This document shows positions 3,998-38,180 of a DNA stretch of 64,000 bases, piece by piece. The notes beneath the pieces are model-generated. The model worked only from the letters and a program-made list of their open reading frames with translations. It had not been told where the DNA came from and did not search any database. Origin of the DNA: Alphaproteobacteria bacterium (GTDB lineage: Bacteria > Pseudomonadota > Alphaproteobacteria > UBA828). Within the stretch, counting starts at the first letter, position 1; every line of letters starts with the position of its first letter. The stretch is taken from positions 768,001 through 832,000 of the forward strand of contig CAXXMU010000001.1 of the NCBI GenBank assembly GCA_963667785.2, read 5' to 3'. The position numbers and the translations under genes are program-made.

Positions 3998-4219
3998 GCC
4001 GCGCTCCCCCTGCTCGCCTTGTCCGCCGTGTTCGCCGGGCCGCCGGTGCGTTCCGCGCTCTCCGGCGCCCCTCCCTCACATGCCCCCACACGCGCCCCCG
4101 GTCAAGCGGGAAGGGGGGCCGGTATTGTGTGACGACCTTGCTCTGCCATGTCTTTCCCTGCAGCTCCAGAACCTAAGTCCTTGCCTCGACGTTATTCCAG
4201 CAATTGCCCTTTCGCATTC

Positions 4220-5554
4220 CTAGATTGCAATGCCTTTCAACTTTCGATAGAGGTCGAGCGCGAACCGATCTGTCATTCCTGAAATGAAGTCTGTTACTCG
4301 TAACCAACAATCGTATCGGCTAGTTACGCCGATAAATTCGCAAGTGACAAGCCGGCTGAGCATTTGCGACTTACCTGACAACTTCTCCGGGTTCCATTCC
4401 GCGTCTTCAAGGTCGTTCACAACAGGAAGAAACAACTCTAGCAAGCCTGAGATTATTTCCGATCCCGCTATTTCGATTATTGTTTTCCGCTCCGACCAAA
4501 AGATTTTTTCCTTCGCAACACGCTTCAATTTGCGAACGTCCGCGCCGTGCGGAGTATCCGCCAATAGCTCCGTTGTATACTTCCCAGCTAATAGAGAAGT
4601 TTCGTTTTCCAGAAATACATCCGATGCAGAATTTATGAGTCTACCGATGGCCTTGGCTCTTAGTTTGCCAATAACCTCGGCTTCCGCTTTGCTCTCTGGG
4701 ATGTCGTCCTCATTTGCGATAGGACTTAGCAAATCTTTGGCTTCATCAAAAGTAAGGTAACCCAACGAGTAACCGTCCTCTATATCAACGATTGCATAAC
4801 AAATATCGTCCGCCGCTTCCACAAGAAAGGCTAGCGGATGTCGGCACCAGCGAAAGTTCTGAGGATCACGGTGTACTAGACCTACTTGTGACGCAATTTT
4901 CTCGAAGTAACTTCGCTCAGATTCAAAGAAACCAATTTTCTTTTCGCCTACGTATTGATCAGCCGCCACTGCCTCAGTCTTGGACGAACGAGGATATTTA
5001 GAAAAGGTGGCGAGGGTAGCGTGTGTCAGCTGTAGACCACCATTCCAGTGGTTGTTTTCAAGTTGTGTCAATATGCGAAAACCTTGAGCATTACCTTCAA
5101 AATTCTTCAAATCATTTCTTTCAACATCCTTCATATTGTGACCAAATATTGCCTCGGATTTCTCAGGAGACTTGAACCACGTGCCTATTGCATGTTCTCC
5201 ACTATGACCAAATGGTGGGTTGCCAATATCGTGCGCGAGGCAGGCTGCTTGAACAATGTGTCCGAAGGTGTCAGAAGAAATACCTTCAGGTTTCAATTGA
5301 GAAGAGATCTTCGATCCAACAAGTGTGCCCAAAGATCTCCCAACAGACGCTACTTCTATACTGTGAGTTAGTCTAGTGTGCACATGGTCATTACTGGATA
5401 GAGGATGAACTTGTGTCTTGTGGGCAAGGCGCCTAAACGCCATGGAAAAGACGACTCGATCGAGATCTTGCTGAAACGGGCTGCGTCCAGTTTGTCGTTC
5501 CGCTTTAGAACAACATAATCTCTTTTCGCAGAGAAGTGTCTGCCAATCCATCAT
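4220..5554 (-). CDS. dgt: dGTP triphosphohydrolase (HD domain), AT-rich and probably horizontally acquired
   Basis: Motifs RSPFQQDLDRV..FRRL..KTQV, TRLTHSIEV, LAHDIGNPPFGHSGE, FEGNAQ, EAADDICY and DFISGMTD. Start may be 5551, 5554 or 5563. Visibly much lower GC than the flanks. Confidence 0.93.
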   Translation of the reverse strand: MMDWQTLLCEKRLCCSKAERQTGRSPFQQDLDRVVFSMAFRRLAHKTQVHPLSSNDHVHTRLTHSIEVASVGRSLGTLVGSKISSQLKPEGISSDTFGHIVQAACLAHDIGNPPFGHSGEHAIGTWFKSPEKSEAIFGHNMKDVERNDLKNFEGNAQGFRILTQLENNHWNGGLQLTHATLATFSKYPRSSKTEAVAADQYVGEKKIGFFESERSYFEKIASQVGLVHRDPQNFRWCRHPLAFLVEAADDICYAIVDIEDGYSLGYLTFDEAKDLLSPIANEDDIPESKAEAEVIGKLRAKAIGRLINSASDVFLENETSLLAGKYTTELLADTPHGADVRKLKRVAKEKIFWSERKTIIEIAGSEIISGLLELFLPVVNDLEDAEWNPEKLSGKSQMLSRLVTCEFIGVTSRYDCWLRVTDFISGMTDRFALDLYRKLKGIAI

Positions 5555-5582
5555 TCTATCCATAAGGCGCTGTTGATCATTG

Positions 5583-6365
5583 CTACCCCCTATACCCCGC
5601 ATCCATCTGGTCCAGCATGCGCATGTAGGCCTGGAACTCGAGGGTGCCGATGTCGCCCACGTGCTGGGAGAAGGCGTCGATCTCGGCCGCCGACTTCTCC
5701 GCGATCTCGTCCGGCACGAGGCTGACCGCGCCGTTCATGGCGAGCGCGTCGACCTGCGTCCTGCAGGCGGTCTCGAGGCGATGGAGGTAGAGGAAGGCCT
5801 CCGGGATGGTCCGGCCCACGCTCACCAGCCCGTGGTTGCGGAGGATCAGCGCGCGGTTGCGGCCGAGGGCCGCCACCAGCCGCGCCTTCTCGCCCTCGCT
5901 CACGATCGCGCCCTCGTATTCGTGGTAGCCGAGCGTGCCGTGGAAGAGGGTGGCGTCCAGACTGATGGGCAGCAGCCCGCAGTCCAGCGCCGCCACCGCC
6001 ATGCCGGCGGGCGAGTGGGTGTGCATGACGCAGTGGGCCTCCGGCGCGCCGGCGTGGATCGCGCCGTGGATGGCGTAGCCGGCCGCGTTCACGGACCACT
6101 CGGTGCGGCCGACGATCTCGCCCTCCAGCGTGATCCTGACCAGGTTCGACGCCGTCACCTCGCCGTAGCGGAGCCCGTAGGGGTTGATGAGGAAGTGCCG
6201 CTCCGGCCCCGGCAGGCGCACCGTCAGGTGGCCGTAGATCGATTCGTTCCAGCCGAAATGCTCGACCAGCCGGTAGGCGGCGGCGAGCTGCACGCGGAGC
6301 TCGGCCTCGCTGGGTACGAGCTCGATGGTCCCGGCCCGTGCCGTCCCTGCTGTGGATGCGCTCAT
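5583..6365 (-). CDS. class II aldolase/adducin family protein
   Basis: LAAAYRL, GHLTVR, FLINPYG..Y.EVTASNL, IHGAIH, CVMHTH and LILRNHGL. Confidence 0.92.
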   Translation of the reverse strand: MSASTAGTARAGTIELVPSEAELRVQLAAAYRLVEHFGWNESIYGHLTVRLPGPERHFLINPYGLRYGEVTASNLVRITLEGEIVGRTEWSVNAAGYAIHGAIHAGAPEAHCVMHTHSPAGMAVAALDCGLLPISLDATLFHGTLGYHEYEGAIVSEGEKARLVAALGRNRALILRNHGLVSVGRTIPEAFLYLHRLETACRTQVDALAMNGAVSLVPDEIAEKSAAEIDAFSQHVGDIGTLEFQAYMRMLDQMDAGYRG

Positions 6366-29323: not shown

Positions 29324-29377
29324 TGACGAGCGGGCCAGGTTCTCGAATCGTAGAACATGACACACGTGTCAGGTTCT
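29324..29377. promoter_or_regulatory. tandem operator/promoter of the udg-GMC-NIPSNAP operon
   Basis: A degenerate site TGACGAGCGGGCCA at 29324 and a perfect TGACAC-AC-GTGTCA at 29358, extended by AGAAC/GTTCT. The sites are 34 bp apart. Confidence 0.75.
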
Positions 29378-29412
29378 CCCGTTTCGGGCAGGAGCGGACG
29401 GACGCCACGACC

Positions 29413-30261
29413 ATGCGACTGAGAGCGGCGCTGCACGAGACGCTCGACGGCTGGCACGGGGATATCGACCCTTCCTGGCGCGCTCTCGTGCACGACGTCG
29501 CGTTGGCCTTCGATGCGGTCGACGCCGCGCTCGAGCTGGAGCCGTGGGAGCCGATCTTTCCGGCCCGGCGGGGCAGGAGCCTGCCCGGCGCGCCGTCGGG
29601 CGCGCACATGCTGCGCGCCTTCGACGGGATCGCGCCGGAGAGCGTGCGCTGCGTGATCGTGGGCCAGGACCCCTATCCGTGCCCCGCGTTTGCGACCGGG
29701 CGGGCCTTCGAGGCGGGCAACGTCGCCCGCTGGCGGGAGCTCGACAAGATGTTCTCGCCGAGCGTCCGCGCGGTGATCCAGCTCGTCGTCGCGGAGCGCA
29801 CCGGCGCGGCACGCTACGCCGAGGGCTTCGCGCAGTGGCCGGAGACGCTGGCGGCCATCGAAGCGGGCGCGGTCGATCTGGAGGCGCCCGAGGCGCTGGC
29901 TGAGCGCTGGGTCGCCTCCGGCGCGCTTCTGCTCAACAGCTCGCTCACGCTCTCCCGCTTCCGCCGCGAGGGCGATCCCCATCAAGTGCGGGGCCATCTG
30001 CCGCTCTGGCGCCCCTTGCTGGTCCGGGTGCTCGATCTACTGGCGCGGCGGGGTACGCCCGTCGTCTTCATCGGCTTCGGCGACGCGGCCGCCGAGACGC
30101 TGGCTGCGGCGGGGCTTGGAGAGGCTGAACAACGCGCAGCGGGGCGCGTCATCCTCCGCCCGCACCCCGCCGCGGCCGACGAGATGCTCGCGCAGGAGAA
30201 CCCGCTCTCGCTCTGCAACCGTCGTCTGCGGGCCATGGGCGCGGCGCCGGTGGACTGGTAG
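29413..30261 (+). CDS. uracil-DNA glycosylase family-1-like protein (atypical)
   Basis: VIVGQDPYP, GRAF, SPS, GALLLNSSLT and VFIGFG. HPAAAD replaces the canonical HPSPLS. Confidence 0.85.
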   Translation: MRLRAALHETLDGWHGDIDPSWRALVHDVALAFDAVDAALELEPWEPIFPARRGRSLPGAPSGAHMLRAFDGIAPESVRCVIVGQDPYPCPAFATGRAFEAGNVARWRELDKMFSPSVRAVIQLVVAERTGAARYAEGFAQWPETLAAIEAGAVDLEAPEALAERWVASGALLLNSSLTLSRFRREGDPHQVRGHLPLWRPLLVRVLDLLARRGTPVVFIGFGDAAAETLAAAGLGEAEQRAAGRVILRPHPAAADEMLAQENPLSLCNRRLRAMGAAPVDW

Positions 30262-30264
30262 CCG

Positions 30265-31923
30265 ATGCCCCGCGAGCGCGCCTTCGACTACGTCATCGTC
30301 GGCGCCGGCTCCGCCGGTTGCGTGCTAGCGAACCGGCTGTCGGCCGATCCCGATTGCTCCGTTCTCCTCATCGAGGCCGGCGGCAGGGACCGCAATCCGC
30401 TCTTCCGTCTGCCCATGCTGATGGGCCGACTGTTCCAGTCCGGCATCTACAACTGGCGCTACCACACCGAGCCGGTGCCGAGCCTCGGCGGCCGCTCGCT
30501 CTATTGGCCGCGCGGCAAGGTGCTCGGCGGGTCTTCCACCATCAACGGCATGATCTACGTGCGCGGCAATCGCCACGACTATGATCGCTGGGCGCAGCTT
30601 GGGCTCGACGGCTGGTCGTACGAAGACGTGCTGCCGGCCTTTCTCCGCTCCGAGGGCCATGTGGAGCGCAGCGGCGCTCACCACGGCACCGGGGGAGAAC
30701 TCACCGTCTGCCGTGCGCGCGGCACCAATCCGCTCTTCGACGCGTTCGTCGAGGCGGGCCATCAGGCCGGCCATCCCGTCAACGACGACTTCAACGGGCC
30801 GGAGCAGCAGGGAATAGGCCGCTACGACTTCACCATCAGGCGGGGCAGGCGCTGCTCCACGTCGGCCGCCTTCCTGCACCCGATACGACATCGGCGCAAC
30901 TTGTCCATCGCCACCGGGAACCTCGTGCGCCGCGTGGTCGTCGACGGCGGCCGCGCGACGGGGGTCGAGATGGCGCGGGGCGGCGGCACGCGCACTGTCG
31001 GCGCGAGGCGCGAGGTCATCCTCTGCGCCGGCACCGTCAACTCGCCCCAGCTCCTGATGCTGTCCGGCATCGGGCCGGGCGACGCGCTGAGCCGGCACGG
31101 CATCCGGGTGGTCCACGAGCTTCCCGGCGTCGGCCGCAACCTGCAGGATCACGTGGACTGCGTTCTCTCGTACGCGTGCACGAAGCCGCTCACCCTCTAT
31201 CGCGAGCTCCGGGCCGACAGGATGATCCGTTCGGTGGCGGAGGGGATGCTGTTCGGCCGCGGCATCGCCACGACCTTTCCCTACGAGGCGGGCGCGTTCT
31301 TCAAGAGCCGGCCGGAACTGGTGGCGCCGGACATCCAGGTGCACTTCATGCCGGCGCTGGAAAGCACGGCGAGCCTGCATGTTCCCAACCCCTTCGGTAA
31401 GGCCGCGGCCGACGCCGGCCACGGCTTCGCGCTCCGCGTGGGTCCGCTCAATCCCGAGAGCCGGGGGTGGGTGGCTCTGCGCTCCGCCGATCCCGCCGAC
31501 GCGCCGCTGATCCAGCCCAACTATCTGCAGGACGACGCCGACTGCACGACGACGATCGCGGGCATCCGCATGGTCCGCGATGTGATCGCACAGCCGGCCT
31601 TCGACGCCTGTCGCGGCCCCGAGCTTGCGCCGGGCGATGCGCTACAGAGCGATACCGATCTCACCGCCTGGCTCCGTGCCAACGCCATGACGACCTTTCA
31701 TCCCGTCGGCACCTGCCGCATGGGCACCGACCCGATGGCGGTGGTGGACGCCCGGCTCGCCGTCCGCGGCATCGCCGGGCTCAGGGTCGCTGACGCCTCG
31801 GTCATGCCCGTCATCACGAGCGGCAACACCAACGCGCCCGCCATCATGATCGGCGAGAAGGCGGCCGAGTTCATACGGGGCGGGGCCGAACCTCAGGCGA
31901 CAGCCAAGGAGAGCGAGGAATGA
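30265..31923 (+). CDS. GMC family FAD oxidoreductase
   Basis: DYVIVGAGSAGCVLANRLS, PRGKVLGGSSTINGM, GRNLQDH, HPVGTCRMG and GNTNAP. Confidence 0.95.
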   Translation: MPRERAFDYVIVGAGSAGCVLANRLSADPDCSVLLIEAGGRDRNPLFRLPMLMGRLFQSGIYNWRYHTEPVPSLGGRSLYWPRGKVLGGSSTINGMIYVRGNRHDYDRWAQLGLDGWSYEDVLPAFLRSEGHVERSGAHHGTGGELTVCRARGTNPLFDAFVEAGHQAGHPVNDDFNGPEQQGIGRYDFTIRRGRRCSTSAAFLHPIRHRRNLSIATGNLVRRVVVDGGRATGVEMARGGGTRTVGARREVILCAGTVNSPQLLMLSGIGPGDALSRHGIRVVHELPGVGRNLQDHVDCVLSYACTKPLTLYRELRADRMIRSVAEGMLFGRGIATTFPYEAGAFFKSRPELVAPDIQVHFMPALESTASLHVPNPFGKAAADAGHGFALRVGPLNPESRGWVALRSADPADAPLIQPNYLQDDADCTTTIAGIRMVRDVIAQPAFDACRGPELAPGDALQSDTDLTAWLRANAMTTFHPVGTCRMGTDPMAVVDARLAVRGIAGLRVADASVMPVITSGNTNAPAIMIGEKAAEFIRGGAEPQATAKESEE

Positions 31924-32246
31924 TCGTCGAGCACAGGACCTACACCTTCCGCCCCGGCACGGTGGAGGGCTGGCTAGAGAAGTACGAGGCAGAGGGCCTG
32001 CCCATCCAGGAGCGCCATCTCGGACCCTTGGTCGGCGTCTACGTCTCCGAGATCGGCCGGCTGCACCGGGTCGTCCTGATCCGGGCCTACGAGAGCCTGG
32101 CGGATCGCGAGCGGCGCCGCGCCACGATGGGCGCCGACCCCGCGTGGCAGGCCTTCATCCAGTCGGTCTGGGCCCTCGACGCGATCCAGGAGCAGGACGT
32201 GATGGTCATGAACCCCGCGCCCTGCTCGCCGCCGCTCCGCGACTGA
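31920..32246 (+). CDS. NIPSNAP family protein
   Basis: IVEHRTYT.RPG, SEIGRL..V, YESLADRERRRA...ADPAW and PAPCSP. ATGA-coupled to the GMC gene. Confidence 0.88.
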   Translation: MIVEHRTYTFRPGTVEGWLEKYEAEGLPIQERHLGPLVGVYVSEIGRLHRVVLIRAYESLADRERRRATMGADPAWQAFIQSVWALDAIQEQDVMVMNPAPCSPPLRD

Positions 32247-32551: not shown

Positions 32552-33211
32552 TTACGACGATGTGGAAGGGCTGCAGCATCCATCCAGGATGACCTTGGTC
32601 ATGGTCTCAGCCGCAGCGTCGAAGTCCGCCCTCGTGAGCCGTCGCCGCCCGAGCACGTCGGCGGCGAGCATCCCGAAGTCCGCGTAGAACTGGGTCGCGG
32701 ACCACAGCATGATGAAGAAGTGGCGCGGGTCCACCGGCGCCATGTGTCCCCGCCTGATCCATTCTTCCACCACGTGGGCGCGCTGGTCGGTGACCGCGCG
32801 GATATGCTGGCGCTGCCGCCGCTCCAAGAACTGCGCACCACGCAGGATCTCGTTGGCGAAGAAGCGGGATTCGGTGGCGTGGCGGCGCGAATACTCGAGC
32901 TTTGCGCGGATGTAGGCAGCGATCGCGTCGCGCGGTTCGCGCTCGGGCACGATGTGATCGAACGCGCGATCCCACCCCTCGATCAACCGCTCGATGACGG
33001 CAGAATAGATGCTCTCCTTGGTCGGGAAGTAGTAGTAGACGTTCGTCTTCGGCAGGCCGCAAACCCGCGCTATCTCCTTGACATGGGTGCCGTGAAAGCC
33101 CTTGTCGGCGAAAAGGCCGACGGCGGCGCGTAGGATTCTTTCCTCGTTCCTGGCGCGAATGCGGGGTGTCGACGGCTCCGCCTCTGCATCAGTCCGCACG
33201 CTCTTCGTCAT
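32552..33211 (-). CDS. RutR-like TetR family regulator
   Basis: IRARNEERILRAA..LFA.KGFHGT, GLPKTNVYYYF, YIRAKLEYSR....SRFFANEILRGA and WSATQFYADF (RutR-type C-terminal domain). Confidence 0.9.
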   Translation of the reverse strand: MTKSVRTDAEAEPSTPRIRARNEERILRAAVGLFADKGFHGTHVKEIARVCGLPKTNVYYYFPTKESIYSAVIERLIEGWDRAFDHIVPEREPRDAIAAYIRAKLEYSRRHATESRFFANEILRGAQFLERRQRQHIRAVTDQRAHVVEEWIRRGHMAPVDPRHFFIMLWSATQFYADFGMLAADVLGRRRLTRADFDAAAETMTKVILDGCCSPSTSS

Positions 33212-33299
33212 GGTCTTCCCTCGCGTTGCACGCCAACGAGGCCTTTCTGCGGCAGCCGCAGTCTAGCCCCGCATTCAGGCTGAGGGAGCAGAAAATACT

Positions 33300-33347
33300 T
33301 GACGCACGTGTCCACTTCCAAGACCGTAAAACATGACACGCGTGTCC
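33300..33347. promoter_or_regulatory. tandem operator/promoter between the TetR gene and the BMP ABC operon
   Basis: TGACGCACGTGTCC at 33300 and TGACACGCGTGTCC at 33334, 34 bp apart. The flanks are homologous to the 29.3 kb promoter. Confidence 0.75.
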
Positions 33348-33384
33348 AGTTTCGATGCAAGCGGGAGCCTGCGGACCCTATGCG

Positions 33385-33471
33385 ATGCAACTGAGGGCGG
33401 CGCTCCGGGAGACCCGAGAGGGCTGGTGGGAGGACATCCATCCGCCCTGGCGCGACGTCATCGGCGACTGA
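33385..33471 (+). pseudogene. 28-codon 5' stub of a second copy of the UDG-like gene
   Basis: MQLRAALRETREGWWEDIHPPWRDVIGD* versus the intact MRLRAALHETLDGWHGDIDPSWRALVHD, at nearly the same offset from the operator (51 vs 55 bp). Confidence 0.85.
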
Positions 33472-33548
33472 ACGGTCCGCCGACGGGGGCCCGCCCACGA
33501 ATGCAAGCCGGGCGCAGCGGGCGCCCGAGGGAGAGAAGGAGAAACGCC

Positions 33549-34622
33549 ATGTCGAACAAGCCGAACGCGATAGGTCCGGGCGCACCGTTCGCGCGCCTCA
33601 GCCGCCGCAGGTTCCTGGCGGCAACCGCCGGCATCTCCGCGGTCGTCGGTGCGAGTTCCGCGCTGCCCCTTGCCGCGCGCGCGGACGCGGGCCTTGTCGC
33701 CTTGGTTCACACCCAGGCGGCGGGCGACAGCGGCCCCATCGATTCCATGATGGGCCGGCTCGATCAGCTCTCGGAGGCGCAAGCCTTCGAGACCCGAAGC
33801 ATCTACGCCCAGGACCCGGCGACCTACGAGACCGTGCTGCGCACCCTCGGCGATGCGGGTGCCTCCATCGTGCTCGGGACCTTCCCGGTCATCTCCGAGG
33901 CCTTCAAGGCGGTGGCGCCGCTCTATCCCGACACCAGATGGATCCAGCTCTTCGGCGATGCCGTCGACCCGCCGATCGGGAATCTGGTGACGGTCTCCTA
34001 CGACTACTATCTCGGCTGCTACCTGTCGGGCATCTTCGCCGCCCACGTCTCGCAGTCGAAGCAGATCGGCTTCATCGGCGGCATCAGCATTCCGCCGATC
34101 AACGCCGACTTCAACGCGCTCGAGGCCGGTGTCCATGCGGTCGATCCGGAGGCCACCGTGACGGCCGCCTTTGCGGGCTCCTTCCAGGACCCGGCCAAGG
34201 GCTACGAGATCGCGAGCCAGATGTTCCTGGACGGGATCGACTACATCCAGACCGATTCCGCCGCGACCGACGGCGGCATCATCCAGGCGGCCAACGAGCG
34301 CGAGGGCGCCATGGTCAGCGCACTCGATCCGGCCCAGTACCCGCTGGGACCCGCCTCGGTGATCGGGGTGGTCAGCCTCGACTTCGGCCAGTCGCTCCAT
34401 AACGAGACCAGCGCGGCGCTCGCCGCCGACTGGCGGGGCGGGCGGCATGTGCCGACGGGCCTCGGCAGCGGTGTCATCGACTTCCTCCGCTCGCCCCTCT
34501 ATCGGGAGCAGGGGCCGGCGGCTATCGTCGCACGATCGGACGAGGCGTGGCCTGCGGTCGAAGCGGCGCGGGCGGGTATCCTCGACGGCTCGGTTTCGGT
34601 GCCGTTCAACACGGAGCTCTGA
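33549..34622 (+). CDS. BMP-family (nucleoside-type) ABC substrate-binding protein with Tat signal
   Basis: SRRRFLA twin-arginine signal, GD.G..DS, YLSG.FAA, IGFIGG..IP.I and AGSFQDPAKGYEIA. Confidence 0.88.
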   Translation: MSNKPNAIGPGAPFARLSRRRFLAATAGISAVVGASSALPLAARADAGLVALVHTQAAGDSGPIDSMMGRLDQLSEAQAFETRSIYAQDPATYETVLRTLGDAGASIVLGTFPVISEAFKAVAPLYPDTRWIQLFGDAVDPPIGNLVTVSYDYYLGCYLSGIFAAHVSQSKQIGFIGGISIPPINADFNALEAGVHAVDPEATVTAAFAGSFQDPAKGYEIASQMFLDGIDYIQTDSAATDGGIIQAANEREGAMVSALDPAQYPLGPASVIGVVSLDFGQSLHNETSAALAADWRGGRHVPTGLGSGVIDFLRSPLYREQGPAAIVARSDEAWPAVEAARAGILDGSVSVPFNTEL

Positions 34623-34717: not shown

Positions 34718-36238
34718 GTGACGGCGCTCGCCGACCTCGACATCGCCTTCGCGCGCGGCGCCATCCACGCCGTGGTCGGCCAGAACGGCGCCGGGAAGAC
34801 GACATTCGCCCGTGTCGCAGCCGGGCTCGTCCGTCCCGACGCGGGCTCGCTCGCCATCGACGGGCGTGCGCTACGCCTCGGCCGCGTCGCCGGCGCGCGC
34901 GCGGCTGGCGTCGAGCTTGTCCACCAGAGCTTCGCGCTGCCGCCCTCCTTCACCGTAGCGGAGGCGCTGGAATTCGGCGCTGGCGGCGGCATCGGCGTCT
35001 ACAGTCGACGCCGGCTCTTGAAGCGATGTCGTGAGCGCCTCGCGGCCCTCGATCTCGATGTCGATCCTCGGCGGCGCATCCGCGACCTGCCGGTCGAGGT
35101 CCAGCAGGGGGTGGAGATCGCCCGCGCGCTGGTCACCGATGCACGACTCCTGATTCTGGACGAGCCGACGGCGGTGCTGCCGCCCGCCGGCATCGAGGCG
35201 CTGTTCGAGCGTATCCGCAGCCTCAAGCGGCACGGGGTCACGGTCATCCTGATCCTGCACAAGATCCGCGAAGTGATGGCCGTGGCCGACACCATCTCCG
35301 TTCTGCGCGGCGGCAGGCTGGTCGCGGGACCCATCCCGCGCGAGCGGGCGGACGAGACGAGCATCGCCGAGATGATCGTCGGCCAGGCCGCGGTGGGTCC
35401 CGTCAGCGCCGACGATACCCAGGCGCTGGTCGGGGCGGCGCCAGTTCGGAGTGTGGCCGCTCGTCGCGTTCCCGTCGCGGCGTCGCCCGAGGTCGGCGAG
35501 ACGGTGCTCCAACTCGCGGACGTGAATACGGCGAAGGACCCGGAGGAACCGCCGCTGGATCGGGTCTCCCTTGCGGTCGGGCCGGGGGAGATTGTCGGCG
35601 TCGCCGGGGTTCAGGGCAACGGTCAGCGGACGCTGGTGAAGGCGATCACCGGCCTCGCCGATGTCACGGGCGGCGATATCTACCTGAACGGCAGCCGCGC
35701 GAGCCGTACCAGCGCCGCCAACCGCCGCGCGCTGGGCCTGCGCGTCATCCCCTTCGAGCGCAACAGCGAGGGCCTCAGCCTCACCAGCGCGCTGTGGGAG
35801 AACTGGTCCGTTCGCGACCTGATGCAACGGCCGCTGTTCAGTTTCGTCGACCCGGCCGCGCTGCGCCGGCGCTGCGACGAGGCGCTCGAGACCTGGGGCG
35901 TGCGCTATGCGTCCGCCACCCAGAACGCCGGCGCGCTCTCCGGCGGCAACGCGCAGAAGGTGATTCTCGCGCGCGAGATCGACGAAGACGCGCGTCTCAT
36001 CATCGCCGCGCAGCCCGCGCGCGGGCTCGATATCGGCGCCACCGCCTTCGTCTGGTCGGCGCTGCGCGAGGCAGCCGGGCGCGGCTGCGGCGTGCTGCTG
36101 ATCTCGTCCGATCTGGACGAGCTGTTCGACGTCAGCCACCGCTTGGTGGTCATGCTCTCGGGCCGCATCGTCGCCGAGTTCGTCCCGCCCTATGACATCG
36201 CTGCGGTGGGCCGCGCCATGACCGGGGCGTCCACATGA
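34718..36238 (+). CDS. nucleoside/sugar ABC ATPase with tandem NBDs; conserved N-terminus extends upstream to ~34649
   Basis: GQNGAGKTT, LILDEPTAVL, GVAGVQGNGQ, LSGGNAQK, QPARGLDIGA and ISSDLDEL. Confidence 0.92.
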   Translation: MTALADLDIAFARGAIHAVVGQNGAGKTTFARVAAGLVRPDAGSLAIDGRALRLGRVAGARAAGVELVHQSFALPPSFTVAEALEFGAGGGIGVYSRRRLLKRCRERLAALDLDVDPRRRIRDLPVEVQQGVEIARALVTDARLLILDEPTAVLPPAGIEALFERIRSLKRHGVTVILILHKIREVMAVADTISVLRGGRLVAGPIPRERADETSIAEMIVGQAAVGPVSADDTQALVGAAPVRSVAARRVPVAASPEVGETVLQLADVNTAKDPEEPPLDRVSLAVGPGEIVGVAGVQGNGQRTLVKAITGLADVTGGDIYLNGSRASRTSAANRRALGLRVIPFERNSEGLSLTSALWENWSVRDLMQRPLFSFVDPAALRRRCDEALETWGVRYASATQNAGALSGGNAQKVILAREIDEDARLIIAAQPARGLDIGATAFVWSALREAAGRGCGVLLISSDLDELFDVSHRLVVMLSGRIVAEFVPPYDIAAVGRAMTGAST

Positions 36239-37281
36239 GCGGCATCAGCATCCGCGCGGGCGCGGTCATCCGCACGCTCGCCTTCATCGTGCTCGCGCTC
36301 GCTCTCTGCGGCGTCGTCTTCGAGCTGGCCGGCTACTCGGCGCTTCTGATGCTCGAAAGCGTCGTCGAGGGCGCCTTCCTGCGCGCGGGCGGCTGGGCGC
36401 AGAGCCTGCGCTGGGCCCTGCCGCTCTTCATCACCGCGACCGGTGTCGCCATCTCGTTCCGCTGCGGCTTCTTCAATATCGGCGCGCAGGGCCAGTTCTA
36501 TGTGGGCGCCATCTGCGCTGCCTTCGTCGCCGATGTGCTCGGCGGTGCGCCTGCGGCCCTCGTGCTGCCGGCGACCTTCCTCGCCGGCATGGCGGGAGGC
36601 GCGCTGTGGGCGCTCTGGCCGGGATATCTCAGGCTTCGCTCCGGCACCGACGAGGTCATCACGACGCTGATGGGCAACTTCATCGCAGCCCTCGTGCTGG
36701 TCTACGTCACCTCGGGCCCGCTCAAGGACCCCTCCGGCACCGGCCAGCAGGCGGCGAGCCCGCTGCTGCCGGCGGTCTACCGCATCAGCGATTCCCAGGG
36801 CATCTCGCCTGCGATCATCGGCATCGCCGCCGCCGTCGCGCTCGCCATGTGGGTGCTGGTCAACCGCACGCCCTTCGGCATGCTGGCGAGCCTCGCCGGG
36901 CGCAACCCGACCATGGTGCGCTTTCAGGGGGCGCGCCTCTGGACCCTGGGCCTTTCGAGCTTCCTTATCAGCGGCGGACTGGCCGGGCTCGCCGGCACCA
37001 TCGAGCTGCTCGGCCCCACCGGGCGCATCGCGAGCGGCTTTCTACCCGGCCACGGCTTCACCGCGGTGCTGATCGCCCTGGTCGCCAACCTTTCGGTGCT
37101 CGCGACTGCCGTGGTCAGCATGTTCTTCGGCGGCCTTGCCTCGGCCGCGCTCTACCTGCCGATCCTGGCCGGACTGCCGGCCGCCGCCATCGACATCTTC
37201 AACGCCTCCGTCGCGCTCTTCATCACCGCGAAGTCGGGATTGCTGGATCGCCTCCTGCGCGCAGCGAGGCTCCCCACATGA
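36235..37281 (+). CDS. nucleoside ABC permease
   Basis: FRCGFFNIGAQGQ, DEVITTLMGNFIA, SGGLAGLAG and GHGFTAVLIAL. Confidence 0.9.
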   Translation: MSGISIRAGAVIRTLAFIVLALALCGVVFELAGYSALLMLESVVEGAFLRAGGWAQSLRWALPLFITATGVAISFRCGFFNIGAQGQFYVGAICAAFVADVLGGAPAALVLPATFLAGMAGGALWALWPGYLRLRSGTDEVITTLMGNFIAALVLVYVTSGPLKDPSGTGQQAASPLLPAVYRISDSQGISPAIIGIAAAVALAMWVLVNRTPFGMLASLAGRNPTMVRFQGARLWTLGLSSFLISGGLAGLAGTIELLGPTGRIASGFLPGHGFTAVLIALVANLSVLATAVVSMFFGGLASAALYLPILAGLPAAAIDIFNASVALFITAKSGLLDRLLRAARLPT

Positions 37282-38180
37282 CCGAGTTCCACGAGTTCAT
37301 GGTGGCGATCCTGCGCTCCGGCACGCCGCTGGTCTACGTCACCATGGCGGGCGTCATCGCGCAGCGGGCCGGCGTCTGGCATCTCGGCCTCGAGGGCGTG
37401 ATGATCATCGGCGCCTGCGCCACGATCCTCGGCATCGTCCTCACCGACTCGTTCCCGGCAGCCATCGCGATCGCCTGCGTGCTCTGCGTCGCCGCCTCGG
37501 TCCTGCTCTGGTTCGTGATTGAGAAGCTCGGCGCCAACCCCATCATCGCGGGCTTGGGCCTCACGGGGCTCGGGATCGGCGGGACGGCGCTCGCCGTCCA
37601 GGCCCTCTTCGGCAGCCTGGCGGCCGTGACCGCGCCCTTCGGCGTGCCCCGGCTCGGCGCGGCCTTTGGCCCCTACGGCGCGCTCTCGATCTTCGTCCTG
37701 ATGATGCCCGTCGTGGTCTGGGGCATGTGGGTGCTGCTGCGCCGCACGCGCTTCGGCCTGCGCCTCGCCGCTGCCGGCGAGCATCCGCTCGCGGCACGCA
37801 GCGTCGGCACCAGCCCGGCCCGCGCCAGGCTCATCGCGCTGGCGGCGGGCGGCGTCCTCTGCGCCATCGGCGGCGCCGAGCTCGCGGCCGGCGGCCTCAC
37901 GATCTTCGCGCAGAACATGACCGCGGGGCGCGGTTTCATGAGCTTCGCCGCCGTCATCTTCGGCGCGGCGCATCCCGTAGGGGCTGCCTTCGCGGCGCTG
38001 TTCTTCAGCCTGGTGGGCGTCGCGGGAATCAGGCTGCAGCTTCTCTTCGGCGCGAGCATCCCGCACGACGTGCTGCTCTCGCTCCCCTACATGGCGACGA
38101 TCCTCGGCGTCTGGATCAGCGGGCGGATGCGCGGCGGTGCCAAGGCCGCCACCGAAGCCTCGGAGCTCCGCGATTACTAG
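37278..38180 (+). CDS. nucleoside ABC permease
   Basis: TPL....G...QRAGV..LGLEG.M, RTRFGLRL.AAGEHP.AA.S.G, MTAGRGF and LPY. Confidence 0.9.
   Translation: MTEFHEFMVAILRSGTPLVYVTMAGVIAQRAGVWHLGLEGVMIIGACATILGIVLTDSFPAAIAIACVLCVAASVLLWFVIEKLGANPIIAGLGLTGLGIGGTALAVQALFGSLAAVTAPFGVPRLGAAFGPYGALSIFVLMMPVVVWGMWVLLRRTRFGLRLAAAGEHPLAARSVGTSPARARLIALAAGGVLCAIGGAELAAGGLTIFAQNMTAGRGFMSFAAVIFGAAHPVGAAFAALFFSLVGVAGIRLQLLFGASIPHDVLLSLPYMATILGVWISGRMRGGAKAATEASELRDY

Follow-up and report, generated by a model that had tools for sequence, protein, structure and literature searches.

In the literature that we examined, the characterised enzymes of the uracil-DNA glycosylase (UDG) superfamily act on DNA. In family-1 Ung, individual serines of the loops make phosphate contacts, and the UNG of Nitratifractor salsuginis reportedly has DNA glycosylase activity as well. 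The structure of the latter (PDB 5x3g) shows GQDPY, an insertion after a G-x-x-F motif and HPYNHT at the motif B position, the Leu loop being absent. Sections of PMC3989344 and PMC5449639 cover the roles in Ung of L191, Y66 and N123 and of the PPS and GS loops, respectively. BdiUng (Blr0248) has a UDG fold with GQDPA, no stacking Phe and no classical motif B, yet excises uracil, 5-hydroxymethyluracil (5-hmU) and xanthine from single-stranded DNA (ssDNA), with pNUNN as its minimal substrate, as described in the parts of PMC5449639 on this enzyme. Among pyrimidine regulators, the closest described systems are the RutR and PydR regulons (rut, pyd); the RutR consensus is TTGACCAnnTGGTCAA (in the relevant part of PMC2475637), and RutR L78 was shown to exclude thymine (likewise for PMC4325133).

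Here we describe a UNG-like protein from an alphaproteobacterium of the UBA828 lineage, encoded within a window of 64,000 nucleotides, which is the whole stretch of DNA that was analysed. The features of the protein, its operon and the associated control sites are, in order along the window:

29324..29337 (one mismatch) and 29358..29371 (exact): two tandem RutR-type boxes, TGAC-N6-GTCA, 34 bp apart
29413..30261, plus strand: UNG-fold protein of 282 aa in one ORF, with pocket residues Q85, D86, Y88, F99, N175 and H251 intact and the DNA-backbone loops changed
29662..29709, plus strand: motif A GQDPY (residues 84-88) and GRAF (96-99; F99 corresponds to E. coli F77)
30076..30084, plus strand: FGD where the GS loop is expected (D224 corresponds to E. 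coli S166); D in 59, A in 10, V in 2 and E in 1 of 72 relatives
30163..30180, plus strand: HPAAAD instead of HPSPLS (residues 251-256), with a predicted helix (252-259) starting straight after H251
30265..31923, plus strand: GMC oxidoreductase of the choline-dehydrogenase class, 3 bp past the UNG-like stop, with H479 and N523 in the usual catalytic motifs
31920..32246, plus strand: NIPSNAP-family protein, overlapping the GMC stop
32552..33211, minus strand: RutR-like TetR regulator keeping W77, W167 and Q171, with Asp at the position of E. coli L78
33300..33313 and 33334..33347: second RutR-type box pair, ahead of the transporter genes
33385..33471, plus strand: stop-terminated 28-codon remnant of an ung-like 5' end, a trace of local duplication
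33549..34622, plus strand: BMP-family ABC substrate-binding protein, PnrA-like
34718..36238, plus strand: ABC ATPase
36235..37281 and 37278..38180, plus strand: two ABC permeases

The layout is rearranged here, such that the first boxes and the UNG-GMC-NIPSNAP triad (29324-32246) are followed by the minus-strand RutR-like gene and then by the second box pair and the importer. Positions 33281-33471, before the BMP gene, are a degraded copy of the ung-like promoter and 5' end (69% identity over 177 nt, E 6e-16); a long ORF (33333-34622) has its start codon inside the remnant, and the BMP gene itself probably starts at 33549. A second UNG-GMC-NIPSNAP triad (74% identity) lies behind a LysR gene on an 11.8-kb contig, C11 (G000:C11:6794-9624; loci L004 and L033), and may be foreign because the assembly has 6.6% contamination. 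Contigs from public runs (run type unrecorded) match parts of the UNG-like ORF without differences. Elsewhere in the window, the GC content of positions 4001-6000 is 0.53 as against about 0.7 around them, and this segment is possibly inserted DNA.

The AlphaFold model of the UNG-like protein (54-row alignment; pLDDT 95.6, pTM 0.93) matches the family-1 Ung fold: in structural comparison family-1 Ungs rank highest (Foldseek E 3e-11), with M. tuberculosis Ung at the top (PDB 4wpl; Z 21.8, rmsd 2.9 over 215 residues), and the best sequence match to a solved Ung structure has an E value of 4e-11. P0008, a homologue with 80% identity, has UDG clusters as its Atlas neighbours. Profile scores are low, at 58.5 bits against a cut-off of 185.75 for the TIGR00628 Ung model and 15.7 against 24.3 for Pfam PF03167. 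A homodimer prediction scored 0.24 against a mark of 0.42. The protein thus has the alpha/beta fold and uracil pocket by which the UDG superfamily is defined, and it shares with the E. coli and M. tuberculosis enzymes the GQDPY, Phe, LLLN and HP pocket residues and the C-terminal P-x-x-W. It differs from them in its identity of only about 25%, in an insertion of about 30 residues and an N-terminal extension, in the loss of HPSPLS (a two-residue deletion, Ser to Ala and Ser to Asp), in a GS loop that reads GD, and in residing in a catabolic operon rather than at a housekeeping locus. Motif A, the stacking Phe, the LLLN Asn and the catalytic His of family 1 are present in all 72 relatives compared; motif B HPSPLS and intact PPS and GS loops are not, the score lies under the family cut-off and the sequence falls outside the canonical clade. 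We class the UNG-like clade as a variant of the UDG superfamily outside family 1.

Residue by residue, the pocket is that of Ung. The GQDPY, LLLN and HP motifs pointed out in the initial annotation are found at residues 84-88, 172-175 (from 29926) and 251-252, and the insertion that it placed ahead of the LLLN strand is, against the annotated E. coli Ung record, split in two and adds about 30 residues between GQDPY and LLLN. E. coli Q63, D64, Y66, F77, S88, N123 and H187 correspond to Q85, D86, Y88, F99, S117, N175 and H251, none of which varies among the 72 relatives (the frame of a further relative, L107, is split, and for that reason it was omitted from these counts); Q85, D86, Y88, F99, N175 and H251 are also present in nine of nine further operon copies. 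Because the pocket is invariant throughout, the chemistry at N1 looks unchanged, so that the N-glycosidase activity read from these residues may be retained.

The loops tell a different story from the pocket. Replacement of HPSPLS by HPAAAD, also reported in the initial annotation, extends to the whole clade: HPSP occurs in none of the 72 GTDB relatives and none of 119 close homologues, as against 90 of 95 canonical Ung controls, and its loss reflects neither chance nor decay. The HP loop is shorter by two residues (the distance from HP to the final W is 31 in 71 of 72 relatives and 33 in 76 of 95 canonical controls), and the position of E. coli S189 is Ala in the query (A253) and in 72 of 72 relatives. 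In the GS loop, E. coli G165-S166 becomes G223-D224, position 224 being D or A in 69 of 72, while position 256, at the end of the L191 loop, is acidic (D or E) in 65 of 72. Ala or Asp takes the place of the residues that contact the backbone on the 3' side. The reported change of PPS to SPS (residues 115-117, from 29755) is real in the query and does not hold as a clade trait: the first residue is S in 62 and T in 10 relatives, the second is variable and the closing Ser alone is shared by all 72, so the SPS spelling is local. Median net charge, a rough proxy only for surface electrostatics, is −9 in the operon clade, +1 in canonical Ung and +3 in distant relatives.

From the missing Leu loop, which in Ung wedges into duplex DNA, the initial annotation had concluded that DNA engagement is lost. 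That step does not follow, as loop loss alone is insufficient: BdiUng lacks motif B and still excises from ssDNA (PMC5449639, in the parts describing it). The Nitratifractor UNG, too, has HPYNHT in its place. Moreover, HPSP is missing in all 45 distant relatives in which an HP motif was found (48 examined), which dates the loss of the loop to before the origin of the operon clade. The pocket residues, for their part, persist in most of the distant relatives that lie outside the operon and may therefore be ancestral. What sets the operon clade apart are its acidic loop residues and its lower net charge.

Homology searches identified 777 homologues among 7997 candidates scored, with 81 representatives at E values up to 1e-30. 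All branch supports quoted here belong to a tree inferred with a careful search from a 48-row subset (11 core, 16 distant, 4 Nitratifractor-like and 17 canonical), whose root was not inferred. In this unrooted tree the 17 canonical Ung rows form one side of a 100/93 branch and the query lies on the other, in an operon clade of 11 rows (100/99) nested in a looser group of distant relatives (88/92). The phylogeny called for in the initial annotation hence finds the query outside the canonical Ung clade, and the UNG-like protein belongs to a separate clade of the UDG superfamily. The label uracil-DNA glycosylase that databases attach to some of its members is probably misleading. The Nitratifractor-like proteins fall on the same side of the 100/93 branch as the operon clade, away from canonical Ung, and form a separate, long-branched clade of their own (100/100; 23% identity in the fold match). 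The N. salsuginis UNG shares with the query GQDPY, the missing Leu loop and the insertion after the G-x-x-F motif. Of the features of its clade (GE/GQ-x-PY, an ATSLR helix and HPYN), the last two are replaced in the query by SPSVR and HPAAAD. Seven of 30 loci returned from 401 genomes (L190-L194, L209 and L216) are of this Nitratifractor-like kind, with GEGPY or GESPY as motif A together with HPYN. BdiUng, which differs from the query in GQDPA and in the missing stacking Phe (Y88 and F99 in the query) and which accepts 5-hmU and xanthine (PMC5449639, same parts), is absent from both the sequence and the fold match lists of the query.

The clade is rare and patchy. It was detected in 18 of 20 genomes of the host's own genus and, besides the host's own, in one of 400 genomes sampled from the phylum, and 73 GTDB loci come from Mesorhizobium, Rhizobium, Pararhizobium, Hoeflea, Variovorax and Paracoccaceae as well as from alphaproteobacteria outside these groups. 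The gene is plasmid-borne in 31 Sinorhizobium records, and many S. meliloti strains appear to have the operon on pSymA; the single record inspected, a pSymA, has it in full, and the S. meliloti 1021 pSymA record is absent from these 31 matches. When metagenomes were scanned with a broad alignment, a single distant member (L109) came up, together with 79 weak matches that read as canonical Ung and served as canonical controls. A viral scan gave 34 weak matches at 22-32% identity, and the annotated phages searched held no match to the UNG-like protein. Two distant relatives, P0172 and P0203, are extended at the N terminus by a domain of about 240 aa to which no Pfam family matches.

The operon, which the initial annotation did not include, carries most of the evidence. 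Among loci with enough flank to be counted, the UNG-like gene is followed by GMC in 70 of 73, NIPSNAP in 68 of 72, BMP in 66 of 69, the ATPase in 65 of 67 and the two permeases in 63 of 65 and 62 of 64, and upstream, in 65 of 72, a RutR-like gene points the other way. At the operon end, an MtaD/AtzB-type amidohydrolase (deaminase) was found in at least 31 of 63 loci and a RihA-like hydrolase in at least 21 of 63, both counts being lower bounds limited by the flank. A reverse search gave the same association, with a BMP orthologue in 10 of 401 genomes of one order and UNG-GMC-NIPSNAP in all eight stretches fetched, three of which also have a DeoA-like phosphorylase. One locus, L331, has DeoA-like, RihA-like, second BMP, P450 and ferredoxin genes all in one operon. 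The amidohydrolase, RihA-like and DeoA-like accessory genes encode pyrimidine-nucleoside enzymes. The closest solved relatives of the GMC protein are choline dehydrogenase and chloramphenicol oxidoreductase. In addition, downstream of the second permease there is often a small gene of the VOC/glyoxalase family (L331-L338, L282, L048, L049, L057, L059, L090 and L095), and the closest relative (52%) of the operon amidohydrolase elsewhere in the host genome (G000:C2:806811-808082) has no clear box upstream.

Control of the operon is similarly conserved. An exact TGAC-N6-GTCA lies less than 150 bp upstream in 70 of 73 loci, as against at most one locus after shuffling; two boxes are present in 67 of 73, and 46 of the 56 exact pairs have a 34-bp spacing. 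The boxes resemble the RutR consensus. A genome-wide box scan of the host found no further tandem site, and a sigma-70 scan found no promoter-like site. As in the RutR and PydR regulons, the regulator is RutR-like (TIGR03613 E 7e-51, 3loc E 8e-41), the box is a similar palindrome and the layout is divergent; unlike in them, the regulator scores below the RutR equivalog cut-off (173 versus 368), has Asp at the L78 gate and stands with an operon without rut or pyd enzymes. W77 and W167, the Trp pair that stacks on uracil in RutR, are each kept in 70 of 70 operon regulators and Q171 in 68 of 70, and Asp occupies the L78 position in 70 of 70 as well as in 5 of the 29 RutR-like proteins compared from elsewhere. 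A search of one supplement of a Proteobacteria regulon survey (PMC5343134) gave no ung or uracil-DNA entry.

Other genes cover repair in these organisms. The check for a separate housekeeping UDG suggested in the initial annotation was positive in the host, which has family 4 and family 5-like UDGs and no canonical ung over the cut-off, and in all 50 other hosts (family 4 over cut-off in 45, canonical ung in 17, one or both in 50). The host also has a MUG-like UDG gene split across two reading frames (G000:C5:386086-386509; L003, L005). For pyrimidine metabolism it encodes Upp and dihydropyrimidinase, and DeoA has no match in it, as in all but one of 20 genomes of its genus. A general role of the UNG-like protein as a replacement for DeoA was considered and rejected, since 35 of the 50 other hosts have DeoA. 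Because the gene is kept in those hosts, and beside DeoA-like and RihA-like genes in L331, the protein is unlikely to be a plain deoxyuridine cutter.

A family-1 fold and pocket in a conserved importer-oxidoreductase operon behind RutR-type boxes therefore point to a metabolic N-glycosidase, which would release uracil from a small modified pyrimidine nucleoside and not from DNA; we hold this reading with even confidence. The unchanged pocket speaks for unchanged chemistry, with an unsubstituted uracil as the leaving group at N1. The altered backbone loops, together with the operon, point to a substrate of small size, and the constant pairing with a primary-alcohol oxidoreductase suggests that the two enzymes act in succession on the same intermediate. 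Given the unchanged pocket, the changed loops and the GMC link, we chose an N-glycosidase of modified uracil nucleosides whose substrate is probably the GMC product. The idea in the initial annotation of a new UDG subfamily for small substrates thus stands as far as the separate clade and the genomic context go, while its argument from the Leu loop does not. From the observed fold, residues, operon, boxes and co-occurrence we infer the catalytic steps, the substrate and the role of NIPSNAP. In the proposed sequence, the BMP-type ABC system would import modified pyrimidine nucleosides, the deaminase, where present, would convert the cytosine form to the uracil form, and GMC would oxidise the substrate at a primary alcohol, which may be the 5'-OH of the sugar or a 5-hydroxymethyl group. 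The UNG-like pocket would hold an unsubstituted uracil ring by F99 stacking and hydrogen bonds from N175 and Q85, with Y88 as a gate at C5, and D86 and H251 would cut N1-C1', as in Ung, on a substrate that ordinary RihA and DeoA enzymes leave uncut. S117, the equivalent of the 5'-phosphate-binding Ser88, could hold a 5'-anion such as a GMC-made carboxylate, and the uracil would pass to Upp or reductive breakdown. Against this reading, an extra glycosidase beside DeoA and RihA enzymes needs a special substrate, the Asp at the C5 gate of the regulator (70 of 70) may be hinting at a C5-substituted ligand, and BdiUng, which has a UDG fold, needs pNUNN as its minimal substrate (PMC5449639, parts as above).

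The hint of a C5 substituent leads to a doubtful but possible alternative, in which the protein acts on a free oxidised base and strips the C5 carbon from 5-formyl- or 5-carboxyuracil (deformylation or decarboxylation) to give uracil, perhaps with NIPSNAP, reusing the uracil-anion pocket of Ung for C-C cleavage. The deaminase, RihA-like and DeoA-like enzymes would funnel 5-methyl and 5-hydroxymethyl pyrimidine nucleosides to 5-hmU for oxidation by GMC, and 5-hmU would come from thymine through the P450 in one variant and otherwise from the environment. Fungal thymidine salvage, which uses thymine 7-hydroxylase (a 2-oxoglutarate dioxygenase) and isoorotate decarboxylase (of the amidohydrolase fold), is comparable in that the C5 carbon is oxidised and removed and uracil recovered; it differs in having no P450, GMC or UDG-fold protein. 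Such a single linear path accounts for all accessory genes, including the P450 and ferredoxin within the L331 operon. It also fits the movement of UNG-GMC-NIPSNAP as a unit even without the BMP importer (the C11 copy, L037 and L041) and the Asp that replaces the thymine-excluding L78 of RutR (PMC4325133, as far as its treatment of L78 goes), although Asp78 also occurs in the 5 of 29 other RutR-like proteins. The pocket residues, however, are all unchanged, which is unexpected for new C-C chemistry, and Y88 is invariant: such a Tyr excludes C5 substituents in Ung and in BdiUng A59Y and should do so here (sections of PMC5449639 and PMC3989344). The C5 step could, moreover, be that of NIPSNAP instead. 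An Agrobacterium plasmid pairs the same P450 with the same importer and hydrolase without UNG-GMC-NIPSNAP, and the P450 may therefore do otherwise, e.g., O-demethylation. Besides the orthologous importer and nucleoside hydrolase, this A. larrymoorei cassette (L330:2570-10960) has genes for a P450, a ferredoxin, a reductase, a LacI regulator and an AP_endonuc_2 TIM barrel; it is possibly a separate route for methylated nucleosides. The L037 and L041 triads adjoin a PotD-like binding protein.

We consider it unlikely that the protein is a DNA glycosylase for ssDNA or very short DNA, BdiUng-like, that cleans up or scavenges uracil when pyrimidines are abundant. BdiUng without motif B prefers ssDNA (PMC5449639, same parts). 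The five distant-relative contexts hold mobile, defence-type or unrelated genes, none of them the UNG-GMC operon and one with a different GMC gene nearby, and the proteins of the distant clade may serve in defence or act on DNA; mobile-element and defence-type neighbours, like the reported DNA activity of the Nitratifractor UNG without HPSPLS, lend this explanation some weight. At L286:3753-13032 and L284:5431-13776, for example, distant UNG-like genes lie among HNH nuclease, ImmA/IrrE, ubiquitin-like, DUF4433-macro and integrase genes. The acidic substitutions in the DNA-facing loops of the operon clade (with the median charges given above), its fixed coupling to GMC, NIPSNAP and importer, and the housekeeping UDGs in 50 of 50 hosts all speak against it.

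The complete set of recognition residues and the translational adjacency to GMC (3 bp gap) would also suit a weakly catalytic or non-catalytic uracil-binding partner of GMC or NIPSNAP, serving as product sink, sensor or channel. This is quite improbable, as all 72 relatives keep D86 and H251, whose counterparts are catalytic in Ung, and no genuine GMC fusion was found among longer homologues of the operon clade, the longer matches reading like frameshift read-throughs. An ordinary divergent housekeeping Ung repairing uracil in duplex DNA, which the database label of some members and the host genome without canonical ung over the cut-off might suggest, is scarcely credible given the TIGR00628 score (58 versus 186), the position outside the canonical clade, the rare and patchy occurrence (1 of 400 sampled phylum genomes besides its own) and co-occurrence with canonical ung in 17 of 50 hosts. 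Taken together, small-molecule roles, the non-catalytic one included, are quite probable.

In open-access PMC and bioRxiv literature we found no description of the clade, operon or chemistry, and no report of a UDG-fold enzyme acting on a free nucleoside. Knowledge of what becomes of free modified nucleosides is still patchy, according to a passage of a paper on 2'-O-methyl nucleoside breakdown (PMC12709175), in which a term search returned no GMC or glycosylase. If the metabolic N-glycosidase reading is true, the UNG-like protein would be a clear case of a repair fold moved into small-molecule metabolism via a nutrient operon, and the operon would define a pathway for modified pyrimidine nucleosides that has not been described before, present in rhizobia, roseobacters and further alphaproteobacteria as well as in Variovorax.
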